NCBI GenBank assembly: GCA_013115145.1 | Contig: JAAPAO010000259.1 | Coordinates: forward strand, 1 to 46,069 | Direction of reading: 5' to 3' | DNA: 46,069 bases | DNA from: Perkinsus chesapeaki ATCC PRA-425 | Lineage: Eukaryota > Protista > Perkinsozoa | Shown here: one piece after another, positions 600 through 32,076 of the stretch | Numbering within the stretch: the first letter of the stretch is position 1 | Layout: the number at the start of each line of letters is the position of its first letter | Translations under genes and position numbers: made by a program | Notes under the pieces: generated by a model | Seen by the model: the letters and a program-made list of their open reading frames with translations, nothing else | Database searches by the model: none | Told to the model about the DNA's origin: nothing

Positions 600-1426
600 T
601 GAGAAATATAGATCACTTGCGATTGAGGAACCCACTCACCGAAAGACAGAGGAAAATTCCGGGAAAAAAGCGCAAGATTCTTCATCCAGAACGCACGCTT
701 CTTAACAACTCAGTCATTCACTAAGTACAACGAGTTTTCGATTAATTTCTTCACTATATACCTTAGAAATGCCCCTAATACCAAAAAAGAAATTTCCTAT
801 TGTGCACTTAATGGATTTTATTACGTGGAATCACCGACTCCGGTCCCGTACTCGGTTTAAACGGATAAATCTATCCTTATCCAGAATATGACTTACAACC
901 CTTGCCACTGTATTTCGAGCATTAACTCAATAACAGTATTAATTACTAAATTACACCACACAAATTCTGTCTCTTTGAAACTCCCCTTCGATACATGCTT
1001 ACCACACCTCACTGAAATCGTACATGTTACTACCCAAGGAAAAGTCACTGCGCCACGAAATTCTTCGGGGAAAAACAAAAAACCGAACAAGAATACTCAT
1101 TCGGGATTATCAAAAAAATAACATCAATCAGTCGCGTTCACTTTTATACGCTAATTCGTGGCGCGTGACATAAATCAAGAATGAACAGTTTATAGTGGCT
1201 CCGTGAATAATAGAATCTTGCAATCTTGACAAATCTTGCAATTCCTCAATTATTTCTACACTTATTGTCCATGCAGCTCTAAACATGTTTAACCGATACA
1301 GGCGGGGCATAGCAATCCATTCTAGCCTCCGAAAGAACCTATGTAAATCGATTACCATGGCGCGCGCTTTTTACACAATTACAAATCTGATTCCCGGTCA
1401 CTTGCTGAATAAGTGGCTGTGAAGCT

Positions 1427-4340
1427 TCACCACCTCGAAGCTGAAAAAGTTGAAAAAATAATCGCAAAGCTAAGAAATTCATCGTGAACAAAAATTTTCG
1501 TCGGTTGATAACTTTTCGGGGAATCGAAAAATTCCGGGGTTTTAGGCTGTTTTCATCAACTCGCGGTCTGCCCGAAAAGCTGATTCCGATGTGGAGTGGT
1601 TCCGGATTAACCATCGAAGTTCATGATCTTCTTAATCCGTCTCCAGATTGTTCGATGTGGCAACTTTGCTTTCTGTCAGGGAAAAAGAGGAAAAGGCAAA
1701 ACTTTTTTTCATGACGATTATTCCGGCAATTCACCGATTTGGAAGAATTCGGCCTAGTCGGCAAAATATTTTTACCAGTCCAAATCTTTTTGAAGCATAA
1801 TTTCCGAAAAGGAAAAAATCGGAAAAATGAGACCTCACCTCACTGCCAAGATTCTTTTTACCAACCCCCTCAGGGCTCGGCTTCGGGCACACCGTGCCGG
1901 ACTTCAACCGCCCAGTTGGTCTAGCGGGCGAGGGATAAACCATGGCTCCTCGCTGAACCAAAAGGTATCCGGTTCTATTCCCAGCGATGACACTCACTCT
2001 CGACGGCAGGGGCACTTGTACATTCATTCTGTCGGACCGTTTCGGACGGCTACTTCGCCCGTAACGCTTCTTTGAGCTGCTCACCGGGAGGCCACTGTAC
2101 GCGGGCGGTGACGAACCTACGAGCAATGCTTCGAGCTCGGATTCTGTTGGTAATTTCAGCATCTAAATGCTGCTAATAAACTTCCTGTCAGGTGGACCAC
2201 TGACATCCCCGCGGCGGTTAGTGAACAACTTAATGTGAGCATAAAGCCGGGTAGAGCTTCCCTCCATGCGCGGTGGCCTCACAGCAGATGGGAGTTCGGT
2301 GGTATAACTGGTATCACTCGAGAGCTCTCGACATGGCCTTGCTGGTTTCCTACAAAATATCTCGAAAAGATTGAACTCCGAATCATGGTTGAGCTAAAAA
2401 ACGGTTACATGGTTTGATTTCACCAACTGTGATATGTACGGAAGATTTCGCCTGCCAGCGGAAATTATCGCGAAGTTACTCGAGAAGAGTGTCAGTTTTC
2501 AAAGCCAAAAATTTCCGGAAAAAAACAGCATTTTCCCAGCCAAGGTCCTCACGCTCACCTAGACCAGGCGCCATCGGCCGCACCAATTTCTTTCCCAGCG
2601 TTGGCGTTGACAGTCGGCTCGAACCCATACTGCCAACGTTCAAGTCACTACAAGGGGATGTGCCACTCATCGGAGGCGATGCGGCAGTCAACAGTGTATC
2701 GAAGGCTGAAAAGATACAACAATAAAGCCCCTTCAGTTGTATATCTCAATAGTTACAAATATCACTTTGCACGCCTACTTCATAAATTTTGTGTAAATGC
2801 ACTTGTCTTCTTTGGTCTGTGAATGTACTCGTTCAATTATTAGCTTAATCGTATGGATCGTAATTATACTGTATATAATTGTATCTCCGAACTCAATCAA
2901 AATCTTAATTCGTATTCAGCTCTGATACTCAACCCTACAGCCAGGCCGATTTCCGAGCGCTAGATTAGTCCGAGGCTCTCGAGCTGCTCGAGTATCGTTT
3001 GCTTGGATTGCGTCGCAATCAATGCGATCCCCCGATTCTCACTTTGTCTTTCGTCGGCAGGAATGACGTGTCGTTGAACTCGACTGGCACTTGGGCGAAT
3101 GGGCGATTTTGAAATCTGAGAAAATCCGAAAATGAAGAAACAGCATCTTCGACCCAGCAGAAAAAAAATCAACTTTCTGCTGAAAAAACGAAAATCAGAT
3201 TTTTTCCATTAACAATAAATTAACGATATAGTCTGCGGGCGGCGAGAGAGATCTGCCACACAGTATAGAATGTCTCCCGCTCGAACCGTAGTAGTCTCCC
3301 TTACATGGCTGCCCACTGAGAGCCTCATCGCCGAGGAGCCTCCTGACGGTCGACGGTCTCCGCTGCTGCAACTCCGACCAAACAGCATGTCCATATCCTC
3401 GTACTCCTCCGCACAGAGCTCGAATGTGCCTTAAAAAATACTACTTCCTGAAGGAATGTTCATGCAGTGAAGTTTGGCCAGCGATATGTCAAGCGTTATA
3501 GAGAGGAGAATAATCTACATATCGGACTTCGTATTGAGTAATTAGCAAAGTGCAGTCCCAAAGTCCCGCGTATCTAGAATTTCGCGTATACCCGCTCACG
3601 AAATACACAAAGTCTTCCTATAGAAGTGTGGCCGATAAAGGAATTCTGGTCGATTTCAGGGCGCCCAGTGTTTCTGTGATACCTATTGTTGAAAAGTTCA
3701 CCTAAGCTGACAAGCTTCCTTTTTCAAACTATTCTCGAATGGGAAATTATTCGCAATTATCGAGCTTAACTCACTCAACTCTGTAAAACGCAGAGCTTGC
3801 TAGTTTGTAAACATACCATCAACTCAACTACCGAGACACAGTTACCAAAATCACTTGAAAAGCAAACTAATCAGTTGACCTGCCTGAGTTATTGTTAAAG
3901 TCACCAGCAGTCGCCTCCTTCCGCCGACCAAGCTGAGCATCAGCATCATCATCTTCACCAATCTCGCCTTCCTGCAGGACTGCATCGCCCTCGAGTAAAA
4001 TAGGCGACGATTGCAGCCTTCTCACATCCGCGAGGGAACGGGATTCTTCGAACAAAAATCGTCCATTGTCACGAAGCGTGTGTAAATACCTCGGAACGGG
4101 TTTTCCTTTTCCGATCTTCGAAGTGCGGCTTGATCCCGGAGCTGGCCGCGGGCTTGCCGAATCAACGCTGCAGCTGTATCAGCCGAAAGTCTGATCAATC
4201 GAGCGAGCTGCTTTAGATAATCTGCACGCATGCACATGCCTTAGGTTATTTTGCTGCGAAGTCGGTGGGGGCGGTGTGTCTGCACTATCCATCGAAAGTT
4301 GAGAGTAGTTGCCATCTTGCAGTGTCGTGAGACCTGAATC
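1427..4340 (-). CDS. Multi-exon hypothetical protein (possibly more than one gene), low-complexity Ser/Pro/Arg-rich
   Basis: Chain of open segments bounded by GT..AG, e.g. DYLKQLARLIRLSADTAAALIRQARGQLRDQ, GDAVLQEGEIGEDDDADAQLGRRK, GTFELCAEEYEDMDMLFG, FQNRPFAQVPVEFNDTSFLPTKDK, ..RRGD|MLKLPTESELEALLVG and KAKLPHRTIWRRIKKIMNFD. The exact exon chain and ends are not resolved. Confidence 0.45.
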
Positions 4341-4724
4341 GGAAATATATGCGAGATACTCAGAAATGGAGTTATAAAAGGTCCATCACCTGACATTGGT
4401 ATTCCCTGAATTTTCGATAGGGTTGGCGATCAAAGCCACGCTACAACACCACCAGTGATTGACAAACGGAAACTGTTAAGTCTAGATGACGACGCTACCG
4501 AATCCTCGAGGATACGCTTCCTTATGAGACTTTCTGAATTCTCAAAGCGTGTAGTGATAACCAAGCACCAATGATGCTCGACAGGAGGCTATCCAAAGTC
4601 CCACGTACTAGGTCTTGGCCTCTCAGACTTTGCATACTATACGTAGTATAGTATGTAGTACGTAGTACTATAGTATACTACGTCAGCCTCTCAGACTTAC
4701 GAGTAGTATAGACTTTGCACGATA

Positions 4725-5070
4725 TGACTTAAAGCGTGGCACCTTCCTCCAACTGGCGACATCTTAGCTGGGCACCGATGAAGTCGTCGCCCAGCAGGAT
4801 TAACTCGCGTAACTTGTAGCATGTGAGCATTTGTGCCAGCAACGTTGCCAAGCCTAGAGTAGCCTATGTTCAGTACGGTGTTGAATAAATCGGTGAACCT
4901 CATGCCGGTGCAGAAGCCCGTGGTCAATCTGAACCCTCTTCTCTACTTGCTATGCCTGGCGTATAGCGAATGATTGAGTGGCGAATAACCATCACAATAC
5001 GCCACAAGATGATAAGTGCTGTGTGTTGGAGTCGTCGTAGTCTAAACAAACCCCTCTATTAAATAGCCCA
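4725..5070 (-). other. Endogenous viral element: decayed toti-like dsRNA virus RNA-dependent RNA polymerase fragment
   Basis: Minus strand gives GVCLDYDDSNTQH (5016-5054; motif A, cf. DYxDFNxQH). The same frame continues through two stops to QIDHGL. A frameshift leads to CTGMRFTDLFNTVLNIGYSR (motif B, cf. SGxRxTxxxNTxLNxxY). A second frameshift leads to LATLLAQMLTCYKLRELILLGDDFIG (GDD at 4783-4791, motif C). Confidence 0.8.
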
Positions 5071-5416
5071 AATTATCGGATTGAAGCTACTACGTAGACA
5101 TCTTCAGTGAAGATATGAAGATTCTTCAGAGGTGTCCTTTTGTCCGAAGCCCAATGAGATTATCATTGGCCTCGCACGCCAATGAGGTAACCGTAGCGTT
5201 GTCGAAACAGCTGCTATCTCGACAGCTATGACAGCTACGCTTGCTGTCAGACAGCCCTCAAGTTGAACACCTTAACTAAGTCATACTATCACTCAAGTTG
5301 AACCGTAATAATATAACAGCCTAATACTATATAACGAAGCATAACCGCTACAGTTATTTTAGATGCATATGGGCATCATGCTCGACTGTAACGAAATGCA
5401 GCACGTGCGGCGCCAA

Positions 5417-7127
5417 TCATTCTACGTACACGATAACCTTCTGCCTCAGGAAAGTTACAGCCGGGCTGTAGTGCTCTGAGCTAGCTCGGAGACTGTGGAA
5501 GAAACGAATCCGGTTCGTCGAACCGGCGGTTACCGGGGCAGCTTTCAATTTCGACAGAGAGGTGTGGGCTAATAGGGGACCGCCTTCGGTCATGCCATGG
5601 CCGGCATGGAGGGATTTCCGGAATTTGAGATCCGAAGAGGCCGAAGAGGCCGAGGAGGCATGGGGTGTGAGATCCCACCTGGAACTCTCAAGCAATTTGC
5701 TTGAAGCAAAACTGAGTGGACGTCCAAAGCGTCCAAATGTAGGGCTACTCACCTCGCGGCGGGGCCAATATTCTGCCGCTAACCGACAGAACCTTGCCAG
5801 GTGCCGACGCCCGCAGCGCATTGCTATTTTCATTGCTGGTGCTCTGAGGCAAATCCGATGAGAGAGCTTGCAGCAGCCCGCCCGGCATAGCAGTCGACAA
5901 CGAAAGTGATTTCGTATTAGACGGTATTGAGGTCTTCAACAGCTCAGCCAGGGCCGCCTGTGAAGGGGAAACTTGCAACCGAAAGGTCTTGCGTTCGAAC
6001 CAGCCTACATTCTTTTTCTCCAAGTCTCGCGCTGTACTCCAAAGCTCAGCGTAGTCGCGCTCGAGGTCCTTTAATTTCGACACTACTTCGTCCTTCTCAT
6101 GCAGCGCTCTCGTTAACTGCAGCAACACGGCCACCATCCGAACACTCCTTCCCACGATAATCCGACTAACTATCCGAATCGGCTACATAATCACAACACT
6201 TCGATCAGGACTATAACGTACAACGCAGGTTCGATCCCGAGTACAAGCTCACTTGTTGCTTAATTTTTGCAGTCTCTTCCGCCTTTTCTTGTATCCAAAA
6301 CTCTCTCTCCAGGGACTGATCATCAACCTGCACACTGTCAAATCTCATACCACTCATTCCTCAAATCGCCCACCTGTCGCTGTATTAACGCACGCGCTGC
6401 CTTCTCCTTTTCAACTGCGTGCCGTAGCCGAGTAACCTACGCCACGCCTCCAATTCGCACTTCCCAGTGATCCCCTCCTGTCTGCGCACTGTGAGTATTG
6501 CGTTTTCTTAAACCGTTTCGCGTTTCTCCACAAGACAAAGAGCGTTCCTTCTATATGATATAAGCTGCTCTTGTCGAGGCGTAAACCGATATGCGTATAT
6601 GAGCACTAGAGCATTGGAGGAGAGCACTAGGAAGAGCTGTAGATTCAACGCCACATGCGCGCCTCTCGGAGCCAATCTTGCCACGCTCAGTATCGATTTC
6701 TCGTCCGGCTTTCTCCACCACCATCCCTAGTCCGTCTCAGCATTGTGTATTTTCGTAACGGTATTCACACCGATTTCAATTTTGGCCGAGTGTGAGCATC
6801 ATCATCATTATCATCATCCGGCCGGCGCCAGAGACTGGGGGTCAAGACTGTACTAGAATTCCGCCAATAATCTTTAACTCTTGTTCTGTTCCGCTCCCAG
6901 CTAGCCTCCGAAATTTTGAAGCTATCGGTGAACACATCGAAAACATCACGAAAAATCGCGCAGCATACCAGCTCGGAAACGGCACAAGTTCTGTCTCCCC
7001 AGCAGCCCACCTCCTGCCGTAGTAATTCCCTATCGCCAACTTTATCATTCGATGCACTCCGAGAACTCACAGAGAGATTCCGAGCACGAGCTGGGGAGGA
7101 GACAGCAGACAGGCTTGCCCGGGGCAT
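5417..7127 (-). CDS. Multi-exon hypothetical coiled-coil protein
   Basis: ATG at 7127 (MPRASLSAVSSPARARNL). Exons include VEKEKAARALIQRQ, VDDQSLEREFWIQEKAEETAKIKQQ and LQLTRALHEKDEVVSKLKDLERDYAELWSTARDLEKKN (heptad-like). The last segment ends at the stop at 5417. Introns are short GT-AG. Confidence 0.6.
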
Positions 7128-23174: not shown

Positions 23175-25411
23175 TCACAGCAGAATCCGCGGTCTGGCAA
23201 TGCCAGGTTCGGAACCCAACGTGGTATCAGTAGCTTTAAGCCATGACTGCACAGTTACCACTGTCTTAGTAAGCACTTCCCTGAAGTAGCAGTAGAAGGT
23301 GGAAGGTTGGAGAAAGAAAACTCACTTCACTCCTGGAAGTTCCGTTGACCCACGCTTTGTCCAAAAACAATGGCTTGCTTTAGGAACCTGAACGATATTA
23401 AATATATTCACAGTAATTTTCATTTTTTTATTCTTTGAATTTTCATGATAAGCTGTATCGCTTACGACGGCTAAGAGCTAAAAGCAATAACATAACATCT
23501 CATATGTGTTTCTCACCTCATATTTTATAACACCCACCACAGAAGTGTCAACTTCACCTGCGGCCTTCCAAGGATCCATTTGTCCAAGAATGACGACAAT
23601 ATTTCCAGTCTTCTTCAAACTCCTGCCGCCGAAATCTTTCATCGTCTCAGCTATCTTCTTCTTAATCTGAAACGACAGCTTCTTTCATTGCCACAAAAAA
23701 CGCGTGTCACATCAGATTGGGACAATCCGAATGCATCTTGACAAAGTGCTTGCTTGATCGCCAGTAGCGCTGGGCTTTGTACAAATGGGCAGTTGCTACC
23801 GAGGTTACATGAGATAAAAAGAACCCATTGTGTACAAATCTGAAACTCCTGAAATCTTCTCTGATCGATATTAGACCTCTCCTTCAACCTAGAATAAGAA
23901 TAGATGGTCTGCTATGCCGGCAACTCGTCATTTGATAGCTCTTACCATGATATGTACGTGCTGTAGCTTTGCAGCTTCTTGGGTTGTTCTAGCTGGGTAC
24001 CAATGCGAGTGAAAACTTTTAGGGCATTTTCCCTACAAGTAGTCCGAGTGTAAAATCCTATTCGAGCTGGTGACGTGTGTTTACTCCGATGATACATCAC
24101 TGCTGGCAACAAACTTGCATTTCTTCTCGATGTTGCATAGGTCCTTCGAACAAAATGGATTATTAGACTGAGTCCCGTTTAAATCTGTAGATCGATCTAA
24201 CCTGAATAACGAAAAATCGAGACTAACAATCAGATAGATACCGTCGAGGTTGGTGAATGGATGGCTTAAAGCTTACCAGAGCTGCCTTGTCCTAGCATCT
24301 TCCAAGTAGTTTCCTCGGAGACCAAAAACTGTTTCAAGTTCACGCCGTCCAGCAAGAGTGGATAGCTTTGCTTTTATAATACCGCTTGCTCTCTTTATCT
24401 GGTAGTGAATGTGGAAAACGCAGAAATAGGTCTGTAGACCTATTACGAATGCAAGACATGCTGGACTGCCTCCGACGCTTGGCTGAGCAAACGCAGCTCC
24501 GACCGCATCTTGATATCTACAAAAAGTGATCCAGCAAATGGAAGTGTGTTGTTAGAGTTACTCAGGGAAATCATATTTAAGATCTATCACGGGGCAGCTT
24601 GCTATAGCACCTAGGAAGAGATCAGGGTGTTGAACACGCGCCCATGCTGCAAGGCTCTGAGGGAAGGGACAAGCGCTTGACTTGCTGGCATACGATAGTA
24701 GAGAATACCCCGGCATAGCTGCAGCCCATCAAAACAAACTTGGGGCCCGTTAGAGCATACTTCTTGACTAGATACTCTCGAAACGTAACGATATCAGCGA
24801 TCGACTGTTTGATCGTGAGGAGTTTATTAAGATCACTTGTTGTTGGGGAGGTTGATGGCAAAGATTGTCCATAGAACCTGCAATAACGACGATGAAACAG
24901 GATGATAGAGTGCAATAACGACGATGATAACGGCGAGGAAAAGTTGCAAAAGCTAGCGTCGTCGACTTGTACGATGGGATTCCCACCTGTGCTCCAGAGA
25001 AGCTACAATGCTTTTAGTGTTGAATCCGAGATGGAATACATCCAAAGGAAAGTCGGACATCTCTTTTTCACCGGCTTCACCTCGTATGTGTATGATGACT
25101 AGCTAAAACACTAACAGTAAGACCGTTGCTGTAGATCATAAGCTGTATGCCGCCTCATGCCATTCTATAGTTTGCCACACACCTGGGATTTCGCAGTCGT
25201 CACGAATTTATCGGAGTAGATGTATCGTTGTTTGAAAGTACCTGTGCAAAGGCGGGAATATAGGATATCTCATTCGAGTCAGCAAAGGAGTGAAGTTACC
25301 AGATCCTCCGAAATGGTCGACAAGCTGGTCGAAGACTAGCGATGGAACTCCCGAGCAATATGGGAGTAAAAGCAAGGACAGGAGCACATGAGAAGCGTGG
25401 ATATGGATCAT
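23175..25411 (-). CDS. Serine carboxypeptidase S28 family (prolyl carboxypeptidase/DPP-II/thymus-specific serine protease-like)
   Basis: Spliced product: signal peptide, FDQLVDHF..TFKQRY, IRGEAG, SLEHR|FYGQS, LTIKQSIADI, GCSYAG (nucleophile Ser), AWAR..HPDL..GAIAS, GQMDPW (Asp) and KASHC (His). Stop at 23175. Confidence 0.92.
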
Positions 25412-27224: not shown

Positions 27225-27402
27225 TTGAATCCCGACTCGGGATGTTTTGCACAATGATTGTTCCACCGTTTCAGACTCTCTATGGCGTGCGTTAAGAATC
27301 CAGTGGCATGGAGGCGTAACTATCAAATCAATGAAGAGGCCAAAGTAAATTAGTCGGCTTGACTGAATTGCTACAATCGATTTATTTCTCAGCTTCTTCA
27401 TC

Positions 27403-27774
27403 ATGCGCATTCTCGCTCTCATCTTCCTCTATTGCGTGTCGACTACAACAGTCTATGGCCAAGGCTGCAAGTATTCCCATGAGTACTGCAAGACTATGAC
27501 TGGAGACTCCAAAGCCATTTGTAACAATGGGCATGGGACTTGTCAAATTCAAGGCCTCCAAGTCCCTGTGCCCTGTAGCTGCTCACAAAGCTCGGCTCCG
27601 CCTACCACTGCTCCTCCACCACCTACTACTACTGCCCCCCCCACCGCCTACCACTGCACCTCCACCACCACCACCTACTACTGCCCCCCCACCGCCTACC
27701 ACTGCTGCTCCTCCTACGACTGGTCCTACCCCTCCACCTCCAACATTCACCCCTCCATAGATCGACAGATATGA
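27403..27774 (+). CDS. Secreted Cys-module + Pro/Thr-rich (extensin-like) protein, paralog of the 16402 gene N-terminus; +1 frameshift in a C-run
   Basis: MRILALIFLYCVSTTTVYGQGCKYSHEYCKTMTGDSKAICNNGHGTCQIQG..VPCSC aligns with MHIFALLSLYCVSTSRRVSGQGCSDAHDLCKTITGNSLAICNNGQGYCQIQG..VPCSC. An 8-C run at 27635-27642 shifts the frame. The PPPPTTA frame continues to a stop at 27760. Confidence 0.8.
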   Translation: MRILALIFLYCVSTTTVYGQGCKYSHEYCKTMTGDSKAICNNGHGTCQIQGLQVPVPCSCSQSSAPPTTAPPPPTTTAPPTAYHCTSTTTTYYCPPTAYHCCSSYDWSYPSTSNIHPSIDRQI

Positions 27775-30179: not shown

Positions 30180-32076
30180 ATGGATGATATTCCCAACGCC
30201 ACCGAGAGACCTCGACGAGATTCTAAAGTTAAATTCGATGAGCATGTCCTTGCCGAACACGACAAGCTGAGGTACTAAATCGGTCATCCTTTCGACTCGT
30301 CTTCGGGCATTAGAATTTTCTCAACAGGGAGGCATTCGAGGCTGATTCTAGAACACAAAATCGATTCTGGAAAATGTTCTCATTTAGCATTCTCCCATGC
30401 AAGGCTCCTCTTCGAGCTGCTCCGTACTACCATTGACTGGTAGGGAGATCTAAGAAAGTGTACTCTTCACAAAAGTGGCGGCCCGTCAATTCTTCGTGAC
30501 CGAATCCTCTGGTATTATATTCCTTCTCGATTCGGGTATTGTTTTCGCGGAAATAATTTCTCCCTAGTCTATCTTCCGGGCGGTTCGAAAGAGAGACCCA
30601 CAAACGAGCGGCGCCCGTGCCGATGGTCTTAATCAAACCAGAGCGACGTATCGGGCATTGTCGAACCTATACTATTGGTGCCGCTGGCGAATCTGACAAT
30701 CTCGGTTTCGGTATTTCTCGAGGGAATTTTCAGAAGTAGAAATCTTTATATCAAGAAATATAATTATTATGTAATTAAAGTATCACAACTAGGCCTTCTC
30801 GAAGAAGGTGCTGAGATCTCGCGCTCCTGACGAGTACGTGGAGAGTAATTTTATTATTTCGCCTATCGTAACTAAGTTATTGATTATCAACTATATCCAC
30901 TACAGTATACTGTTGAGGTTGAAATAATAATAGAAGTCAATTTAAGTTATTTGATTACAACTTGTAAATCTATCAGAACTGGTTTCCTACTGTCTGACAT
31001 TTCTCGTCTCAGAGGTACTCGAATGACGATAAACGAGCCGGATACCCCCTTCATAAAGGAAGTGCTGCACGATAGCGAGGAGGAAGATACGCCTGCGCAC
31101 TGTGAAGAATTTGGGGATGCCCTGGCCGATAAGCTAACAAAGCTGAATGTTAATGAAGATGGCACGGTAGCAGCGGGGAATCAAAGGCACCACGGGGCGG
31201 GTTTAATGGGACTTCACTAAACTACATCGTTTATTAATCGATCATCGGTAAAGGTGAAAATTTCTATCGAAGGTGGATTCCTTGAAGTTTGGTAATAGTT
31301 TGGCCCTGAACCCCTAGAAATATATAGGTCTGGGCGCTGCTTCCGAATGTCGCCTGATGGAGTGATATTGAAACCTGCAACTGTTTCGGTTTTTTGAAAT
31401 CGCTCGTTCAGGCTGCTCGAGGTGATAATGAAAATGATGGGGAGAAGTCTCGGAAGGCATTCGAACAGAAGAGGAAGAATCACTATAATGAGTTCAAGGT
31501 GGCGATCGGACAGTTTCAAAATCGATCGGTTTGTATAATAATGCATTGTCAAGTCATTGGGAACCGCTAGCCGACCTCTTCCTTATCAAGCTTGTCTGGC
31601 AGTGCATCTGGGGGGTGTCGTAGAGGAAAGGCAAATGCTAGGTGCAGAAGGAGTGCGTTTAATTTGTAATTTTGGGTTTGTTACTGAAGTTAGAAGGTTA
31701 CCTTCCAAGGTAGTTGGGAATATATCTTCCATACTAGATCATCACCGGATTATGTTTTGGTTAAGCTAGAGTGATTCCTGTCGGAGCAAGACTTCTATCT
31801 CTTTGGGAAATTTCCAGTCTCTGGTCGATGCCCAGTGGGCTGCTTAAAATCCCGACAACTTGGGAGATTGAGCGGAGTGTGAGGCAGGCACTTTGATGTA
31901 CGGTCATCGCAGGAGATAGCTAAAACTATACTGTCACAGTGCTTCTGTGGTCCACAGTCGGTGGAATATTTCGCAGCTTCCTGGAGCCTAGGGAGTTGAT
32001 GATCAATACGGTATTTTATCAGGCAATGAAGGCACTTGGAGACGGCAGCGTCGAGGTTGAAGAAGACGACGAGTGA
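30180..32076 (+). CDS. PPP1R2: Protein phosphatase 1 inhibitor-2 (IPP-2/Glc8 family)
   Basis: Exons 30180-30271, 31013-31166, 31412-31498 and 32023-32076 splice in phase to MDDIP..SKVKFDEHVLAEHDKLR|GTRMTINEPDTPF..DALADKL..|..FEQKRKNHYNEFK|AMKALG..EEDDE*. This contains the I-2 motifs IxEPxTP and KRKxHYNE. Confidence 0.9.

Follow-up and report, generated by a model that had tools for sequence, protein, structure and literature searches.

What is a piece of double-stranded RNA (dsRNA) virus polymerase doing in the DNA of Perkinsus chesapeaki, a clam parasite from a phylum with very few known viruses, and did it arrive there as a copy that was later broken, or does the pattern have another source? 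The window, that is, the whole stretch of DNA that was analysed, is 46,069 nt long, and the locus occupies a few hundred nucleotides of it, on the minus strand. The reading favored here, at a probability of roughly 84%, is that positions 5054-4774 hold a broken fragment of a Ghabrivirales-type RNA-dependent RNA polymerase (RdRp), which would have been reverse-transcribed, inserted once into P. chesapeaki DNA and left to decay without function.

Polymerase motifs, frames and scores

By six-frame translation of positions 3500-6500, RdRp motifs A, B and C were found on the minus strand, in that order, within 5054-4774 and in three successive frames (Table 1). The core of motif A, LDYDDSNTQH, lies at 5045-5016, motif B (GFCTGMRFTDLFNTVLNIGY) lies at 4918-4859, and the core of motif C, LLGDDFIG, lies at 4797-4774; the frame changes by one step from A to B and by one step again from B to C. 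The first-pass annotation of this DNA had reported three RdRp palm motifs in the right order on this strand, and all three are present where it placed them. Its quotation of motif B is correct for the motif itself, and the prefix "GL-" that it carried belongs to the neighbouring frame. It had also linked the motifs across two stops and two frameshifts. Both frameshifts are there, but on the best-supported path a single stop (4945-4943) falls between A and C, and the other stops, at 5075-5073 and 4731-4729, flank the fragment and close it on either side. The secure extent of the fragment is 5054-4774, and 4555 is a possible lower end.

Table 1. Positions of the viral fragment, its parts and the neighbouring host genes in the window.
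Feature	Positions	Strand	Remarks
RdRp motif A region	5016..5054	-	GVCLDYDDSNTQH; profile rank 1 of 92,068
Shortened A-B linker	4946..5014	-	likely internal deletion of ~20-25 codons plus first frame change (putative)
In-frame stop codon between motifs A and B	4943..4945	-	in frame of B
RdRp motif B region	4859..4942	-	RRGFRLTTGFCTGMRFTDLFNTVLNIGY; hmmsearch 14.8 bits, i-E 4e-6; profile rank 1
RdRp motif C region	4774..4803	-	LILLGDDFIG; one frame on from B; profile rank 3 of 92,080
Possible further decayed RdRp sequence	4555..4773	-	D/E-like residues; not significant
Exon of FOL47_004547 (KAF4665482.1)	4743..4928	-	motif B in frame, then leaves viral frame
Upstream host gene, coiled-coil-like	5590..6436	-	conserved in P. 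olseni; predicted last intron 5752-5679, stop 5592
Downstream host gene	1282..4396	-	conserved in P. olseni; predicted ATG 4396, 56-nt intron 4389-4334, exon 4331-4239

The motifs were scored against a panel of viral polymerases gathered from IMG/VR by motif pattern (131 rows, some of them duplicates), from which 112 general-pattern rows were used to build position-specific profiles. The panel contains Ghabrivirales-type sequences only, with other RdRp orders not scored alongside, and all seven of the panel proteins that were scanned were assigned to Pfam RdRP_4. Motif A scored 32.5 bits, the highest of all window positions (next best 8.1). Motif B scored 24.9 bits, first of 92,020 positions with a runner-up at -3.7, a result with some circularity in it, as a motif-B pattern had served to gather the panel; the scores of A and C are independent of that pattern. 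Motif C scored 8.9 bits and ranked third. As an ordered triple, A-B-C reached 61.0 bits, compared to a mean of 1.7 and a maximum of 13.1 in 100 shuffled windows, and the best ordered triple in the window minus 4601-5200 was 3.9 bits. The triple test used 34 of 55 dereplicated representatives, rows picked by TDL or motif-A patterns being excluded. A chance pattern in non-coding DNA would agree with the position of motif C, which taken alone lies within background, and with the linkers, which, like a downstream G-x-W, carry no signal above background; by the triple score, in the shuffles and in the rest of the window alike, such a pattern is for practical purposes refuted.

When hmmsearch was run on the six frames, just two domains were reported, B (i-E 4e-6) and A (0.064). 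Pfam gave no match on five single-frame pieces of the element. A read-through of B to C (69 residues, with X at the frame change) matched RdRP_1 with 13.3 bits (E 0.036) and RdRP_4 with 11.5 bits (E 0.14), the latter below the formal cut-off of PF02123 (22 bits) and the former below that of RdRP_1, and the fragment is not filed as a formal Pfam PF02123 member. The first-pass annotation had made its reading depend on a hit of the repaired peptide to RdRp profiles; such hits exist in the panel profiles, with A and B in first place and the high triple score, and the B-C stretch stays under the Pfam cut-offs.

Virus group and relatives of the source virus

The N-x-Q-H ending of motif A is typical of Ghabrivirales, and the order-level call rests on motif A together with this typicality. 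Motif A fits the panel pattern D-Y-x-D-F-N-x-Q-H save at one position, where its Ser sits in place of the aromatic residue carried by 91 of 91 panel rows. Motif B agrees with [ST]G-x-R-x-T-x-x-x-N-T-x-L-N-x-x-Y. Its T-G start had been called atypical, and Thr as the first residue is indeed uncommon but not unique, being seen in 6 of 107 panel rows. From the Thr of B to the Gly of C there are 118 nt (39 codons plus 1 nt), a distance that falls within the 39-43 class, to which 39 of 129 panel rows belong, and not within the 31-35 class of 89 of 129 rows. The residue before GDD is Asn in 51 of 107 panel rows and Leu in 6 of 107, and the fragment has L-L-G-D-D. On these measures, the fragment has the B-C spacing of the long-spacer group, of which botybirnaviruses are a part. 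A classical short-spacer totivirus (B-C 31-35, H-N-G-D-D) was considered as well and rejected, since the fragment has 39 or more codons and L-L-G-D-D.

Motifs A, B and C each follow the pattern of a putative Ghabrivirales-type (RdRP_4-like) RdRp. The proposal of the first-pass annotation, an endogenised and decayed Ghabrivirales-like dsRNA-virus RdRp in a protist genome, gains support from the motif ranks, the triple score and the A-B spacing described below. It is worth considering whether the fragment is instead an endogenous viral element (EVE) left by RNA viruses of a different group, be they picorna-like, Durnavirales or an unclassified clade, with Ghabrivirales-like motifs. RdRP_1 does score slightly above RdRP_4 on the B-C stretch, and a panel of Ghabrivirales-type sequences offers no side-by-side scores. 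On the other hand, motif A, which lies outside the Pfam B-C query, reaches its 32.5 bits with the RdRP_4 panel profiles and has the N-x-Q-H ending, and true RdRP_4 proteins match RdRP_1 too (4 of 7), so that another virus group is unlikely.

Regarding the relatives of this Ghabrivirales-type polymerase, the best panel rows share 24-25 identities with the fragment over the three motif blocks (49 residues), and the best block scores are 115-118, compared to a mean of 91 (sd 12) over 85 rows. The top rows are L172, L062, which is Botrytis porri botybirnavirus 1, and L043, a short-spacer row (B-C 33, score 115). The cap-pol of Botrytis porri botybirnavirus 1 (YP_006390636.1; rows L062 and L240) and L172 have the joint-best block similarity with the fragment (24-25 of 49); like it, they have VCLDY in A and LGDD in C, and their B-C spacing is 40. 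Unlike the fragment, Botrytis porri botybirnavirus 1 is without T-D-L in motif B and has a fungal host, and the botybirnavirus rows are not set apart from other rows by score (115-118 against 115 for the unrelated L043). The T-D-L of motif B is common to the fragment and panel rows L001-L009.

No closer relative emerged from the database searches, whose sensitivity is low with so short a query. A protein search with the window's own sequence returned no RdRp, the sole hit among 33 candidates being the window's own gene model. Among representative proteins, the 81 residues of the natural frame matched two entries, both of them unrelated repeat proteins on the off-frame part, and the B-C stretch had two weak, unrelated matches among solved structures. 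A pattern search of viral contigs produced 23 matches, none of them confirmed; the DNA pattern for G-x-R-F-T-D-L-x-N-T-x-L-N had zero matches in metagenome contigs, and a looser T-D-L pattern hit 10 viral and 18 metagenome loci, none of them close. Since no close relative was found (at best 25 of 49 identities in the motif blocks), placement in a family is not possible, and some 50 alignable residues are too few for a tree. Either the source virus is not described in the searched collections, or its remnant has decayed too far for placement, and no family is assigned. As a separate observation, L136, a 1,717-nt public contig listed as viral and equal in length to L002, has several stops (standard code) in its RdRp motif B-C region (1383-1421); it may be a further relic or follow a different genetic code.

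Integration, decay and origin of the fragment

A single 7,030-nt Logan contig covers 718-7747 at a depth of 59.6, with neighbouring long contigs at 49.7-59.3, and it spans the fragment as well as host exons on both sides. At 80% likeness, 4200-5900 is covered by that one contig alone, without joints, gaps or loose ends; at the same likeness, neither a second copy nor an empty allele is visible in that run, in which contigs can drop variants. The run is the only one with the stretch, is presumed to be of DNA and possibly supplied the reads for the assembly, so its contiguity is not independent confirmation; no RNA run with the stretch is listed, which has no bearing on expression. The viral sequence is contiguous with host genes in that DNA contig, and the fragment is a probable non-retroviral EVE. 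An assembly chimera, named by the first-pass annotation as something that would overturn its reading, or contamination from viral RNA could draw on the fact that there is one run only, possibly the assembly source, with its library type off record. Both are extremely unlikely when the separately assembled contig crosses both junctions at flank-like depth without loose ends, and a replicating virus would not have a stop and two frameshifts in the palm of its polymerase.

The inserted fragment also appears to have lost sequence. From the Asp of A to the Thr of B there are 133 nt (44 codons plus 1), compared to a range of 56-107 residues over those panel rows, 112 of 131, in which A was located; the distance is at least 12 codons below every one of these 112 rows, and so short a distance occurs in no panel row. 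These figures agree with the earlier suggestion that the short A-B spacing points to an internal deletion. The alignment of P0017 (5014-4859, 29% over 52, E 0.068) starts, in the frame of B, right behind motif A; a single deletion at that point may therefore account for the first frame change as well as for the short spacing, with the block scores leaving the frame inside the A-B linker ambiguous. A deletion after insertion is the likely cause of the short linker, the alternative being a virus lineage that had a short linker of its own.

Downstream of motif C, a Lys at +31 and Leu-Arg at +42/43 from GDD stand at the positions of motifs D and E in the panel, where Leu-Arg falls at 41-43 in 49 of 49 rows with the motif; the D/E block is in the top 6.4% of window positions, which is not above background. 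Between perfect 13-nt direct repeats (4618-4630 and 4686-4698) lies a TAGTA/TACTA-rich, partly palindromic patch that is unique in the window, and this low-complexity patch (4618-4698) may be the scar of a repair or have arisen by local duplication within the fragment. Upstream of motif A, no motif F was found. As no frame holds more than one of motifs A, B and C and no motif F was seen, the fragment, judged by its translation, cannot yield a working polymerase.

Ghabrivirales have no DNA stage, and a DNA copy therefore needs a borrowed reverse transcriptase. According to PMC2805616, Totivirus is likewise without a DNA stage or an integrase of its own, and fungal toti-like EVEs also need a borrowed reverse transcriptase; P. 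marinus has many retroelement polyproteins (PMC2868825). It is likely that the RNA of a dsRNA virus was copied to cDNA by the reverse transcriptase of a host retroelement, and the cDNA would have been captured at a DNA break during repair. Insertion by break repair is suggested because neither a target-site duplication nor a poly(A) nor a retroelement piece was seen around the fragment. A 12-nt near-repeat (4571-4582/5375-5386) was not accepted as a target-site duplication: over a 1.4-kb interval, a match of this kind is estimated to lie within chance. The one likely insertion would have been followed by the deletion after motif A and by neutral decay without function, and the virus would have replicated in Perkinsus itself, rather than in its mollusc host or food. 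Biologically, the fragment is an ordinary, short, dead, single-copy EVE.

Similar elements are known elsewhere. The fungal totivirus-like integrated sequences (Taylor and Bruenn 2009, PMC2805616) are the same kind of element, a Ghabrivirales-type RdRp in a nuclear genome; they are long, often open and under purifying selection, whereas the P. chesapeaki fragment is ~280-500 nt long, frameshifted and single-copy in an alveolate host. The Mononegavirales-like EVEs of P. olseni (Brown and Firth 2025, PMC12548735) are also fragmented RNA-virus RdRps among host genes, in the same genus, and were presented as the first in the phylum. They derive from a negative-strand virus, comprise nine sequences in three assemblies and were found as annotated proteins, whereas the present fragment is dsRNA-type, comes from another species and is mostly hidden across frames. 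A single toti-like RdRp fragment of P. chesapeaki is also cited in PMC12548735, with Charon et al. 2022 as its source, and this fragment and the P. olseni EVE set are the Perkinsozoa RNA viruses listed as known in that 2025 survey. The fragment of Charon et al. comes from the same host species and the same broad virus group as the EVE, likened by its description only (PMC12548735); it could be transcribed from this EVE or from a different one, stem from a related virus that is still alive, or have no connection with the EVE. The novelty implied by the first-pass annotation is thus reduced, since both Perkinsus EVEs and a toti-like P. chesapeaki fragment are already in print (PMC12548735).

Three Ghabrivirales-like matches in MMETSP transcriptomes have been reported in PMC9752661. 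Perkinsus is unnamed in the main text of PMC9752661, PMC9927876, PMC9599419 and PMC10101049, and likewise in the supplements covered for PMC9752661 (legends), PMC10101049 and PMC12548735; the toti-like fragment may be in the data files of these papers. In the literature on Perkinsus viruses and protist EVEs, with subscription papers mostly outside reach, no description of a toti-like EVE in Perkinsus was found, and the six-letter motif A string had zero matches in published papers. Toti-like EVEs are a known kind elsewhere, and for Perkinsozoa no earlier report was found. Reads of Rudphi_virus3, a bivalve-associated RNA virus, were described in a P. olseni trophozoite RNA sample (PMC6466128, in part), a further hint of RNA viruses in Perkinsus. 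Virus-like particles in Perkinsus have been reported from electron microscopy without having been isolated (PMC4858233, PMC2868825).

A more far-reaching proposal is that the fragment is the first dsRNA-virus fossil in Perkinsozoa, from an undescribed family-level lineage of Ghabrivirales that infects Perkinsus and still circulates, with the P. chesapeaki RNA fragment as its living relative. We regard this as a tentative idea and, taken as a whole, a doubtful one. If it is true, some of the virus-like particles that were seen in Perkinsus cells and never identified might belong to such a lineage. A fossil in the DNA of the parasite binds a Ghabrivirales-like virus to its host more firmly than culture RNA can, and the motif sequences of the fragment are usable for finding the living virus. 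Given that dsRNA viruses alter the behaviour of other protozoan parasites, a Perkinsus virus would be of interest to shellfish disease research.

Neighbouring host genes and the public gene model

The nearest exons on both sides of the fragment are 59-89% identical to three homologous proteins of P. olseni. In the upstream gene, the predicted last intron (74 nt, GT-AG) is followed in frame by a short exon that is rich in Pro and ends in the stop, and in the downstream gene, the predicted ATG and the GT-AG intron behind it lead in frame into the conserved exon that begins at 4331 (Table 1). Two of the three P. olseni models keep the two sides apart, ending or beginning at the gap (contigs of 2.7 and 10.6 kb), and one joins both sides directly. 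The first-pass annotation had placed the fragment between two host genes. In view of the predicted stop and ATG and of the two separate P. olseni models, an intergenic position is the likelier reading, and probably the right one, without being established; a position in an intron of one host gene, which would follow if the single joined model is right, is the lesser but still appreciable possibility.

The public gene model FOL47_004547 (hypothetical protein, 1,063 aa) maps to 15103-1282 on the minus strand. It joins an aminotransferase IV gene, a second gene (9992-8873), the coiled-coil gene, the viral exon and the downstream gene, and it skips the exon at 4331-4239, which is 87% identical in P. 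olseni. The model appears to be a fusion of four neighbouring genes plus the viral exon, and the public record KAF4665482.1 carries a viral motif under the label "hypothetical protein". If the fragment had been exonised, the host would splice 4928-4743 into mRNA as in this model, and motif B would be part of a host protein; the AG/GT ends and the open frame of the exon used there are compatible with such splicing. However, the model strings several genes together while omitting a conserved exon, the viral exon is present in none of the three P. olseni homologues, and past motif B its frame misses GDD. Exonisation is therefore very unlikely, and the motif B exon is probably an artefact of gene prediction, as judged from these comparisons.

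Elsewhere in the window, 16405-17976 (minus strand) and 27367-27771 (plus strand) encode a pair of related proteins that look secreted, each having mucin-like repeats rich in Thr and an N-terminus rich in Cys, and neither had a Pfam match; the longer of the pair, at 16405-17976, also has three Cys-rich C-terminal repeats. A piece of a serine carboxypeptidase S28 lies at 24625-25002 on the minus strand (E 2e-11), and 30876-31217 on the plus strand gives a weak match to protein phosphatase inhibitor 2 (E 0.002).
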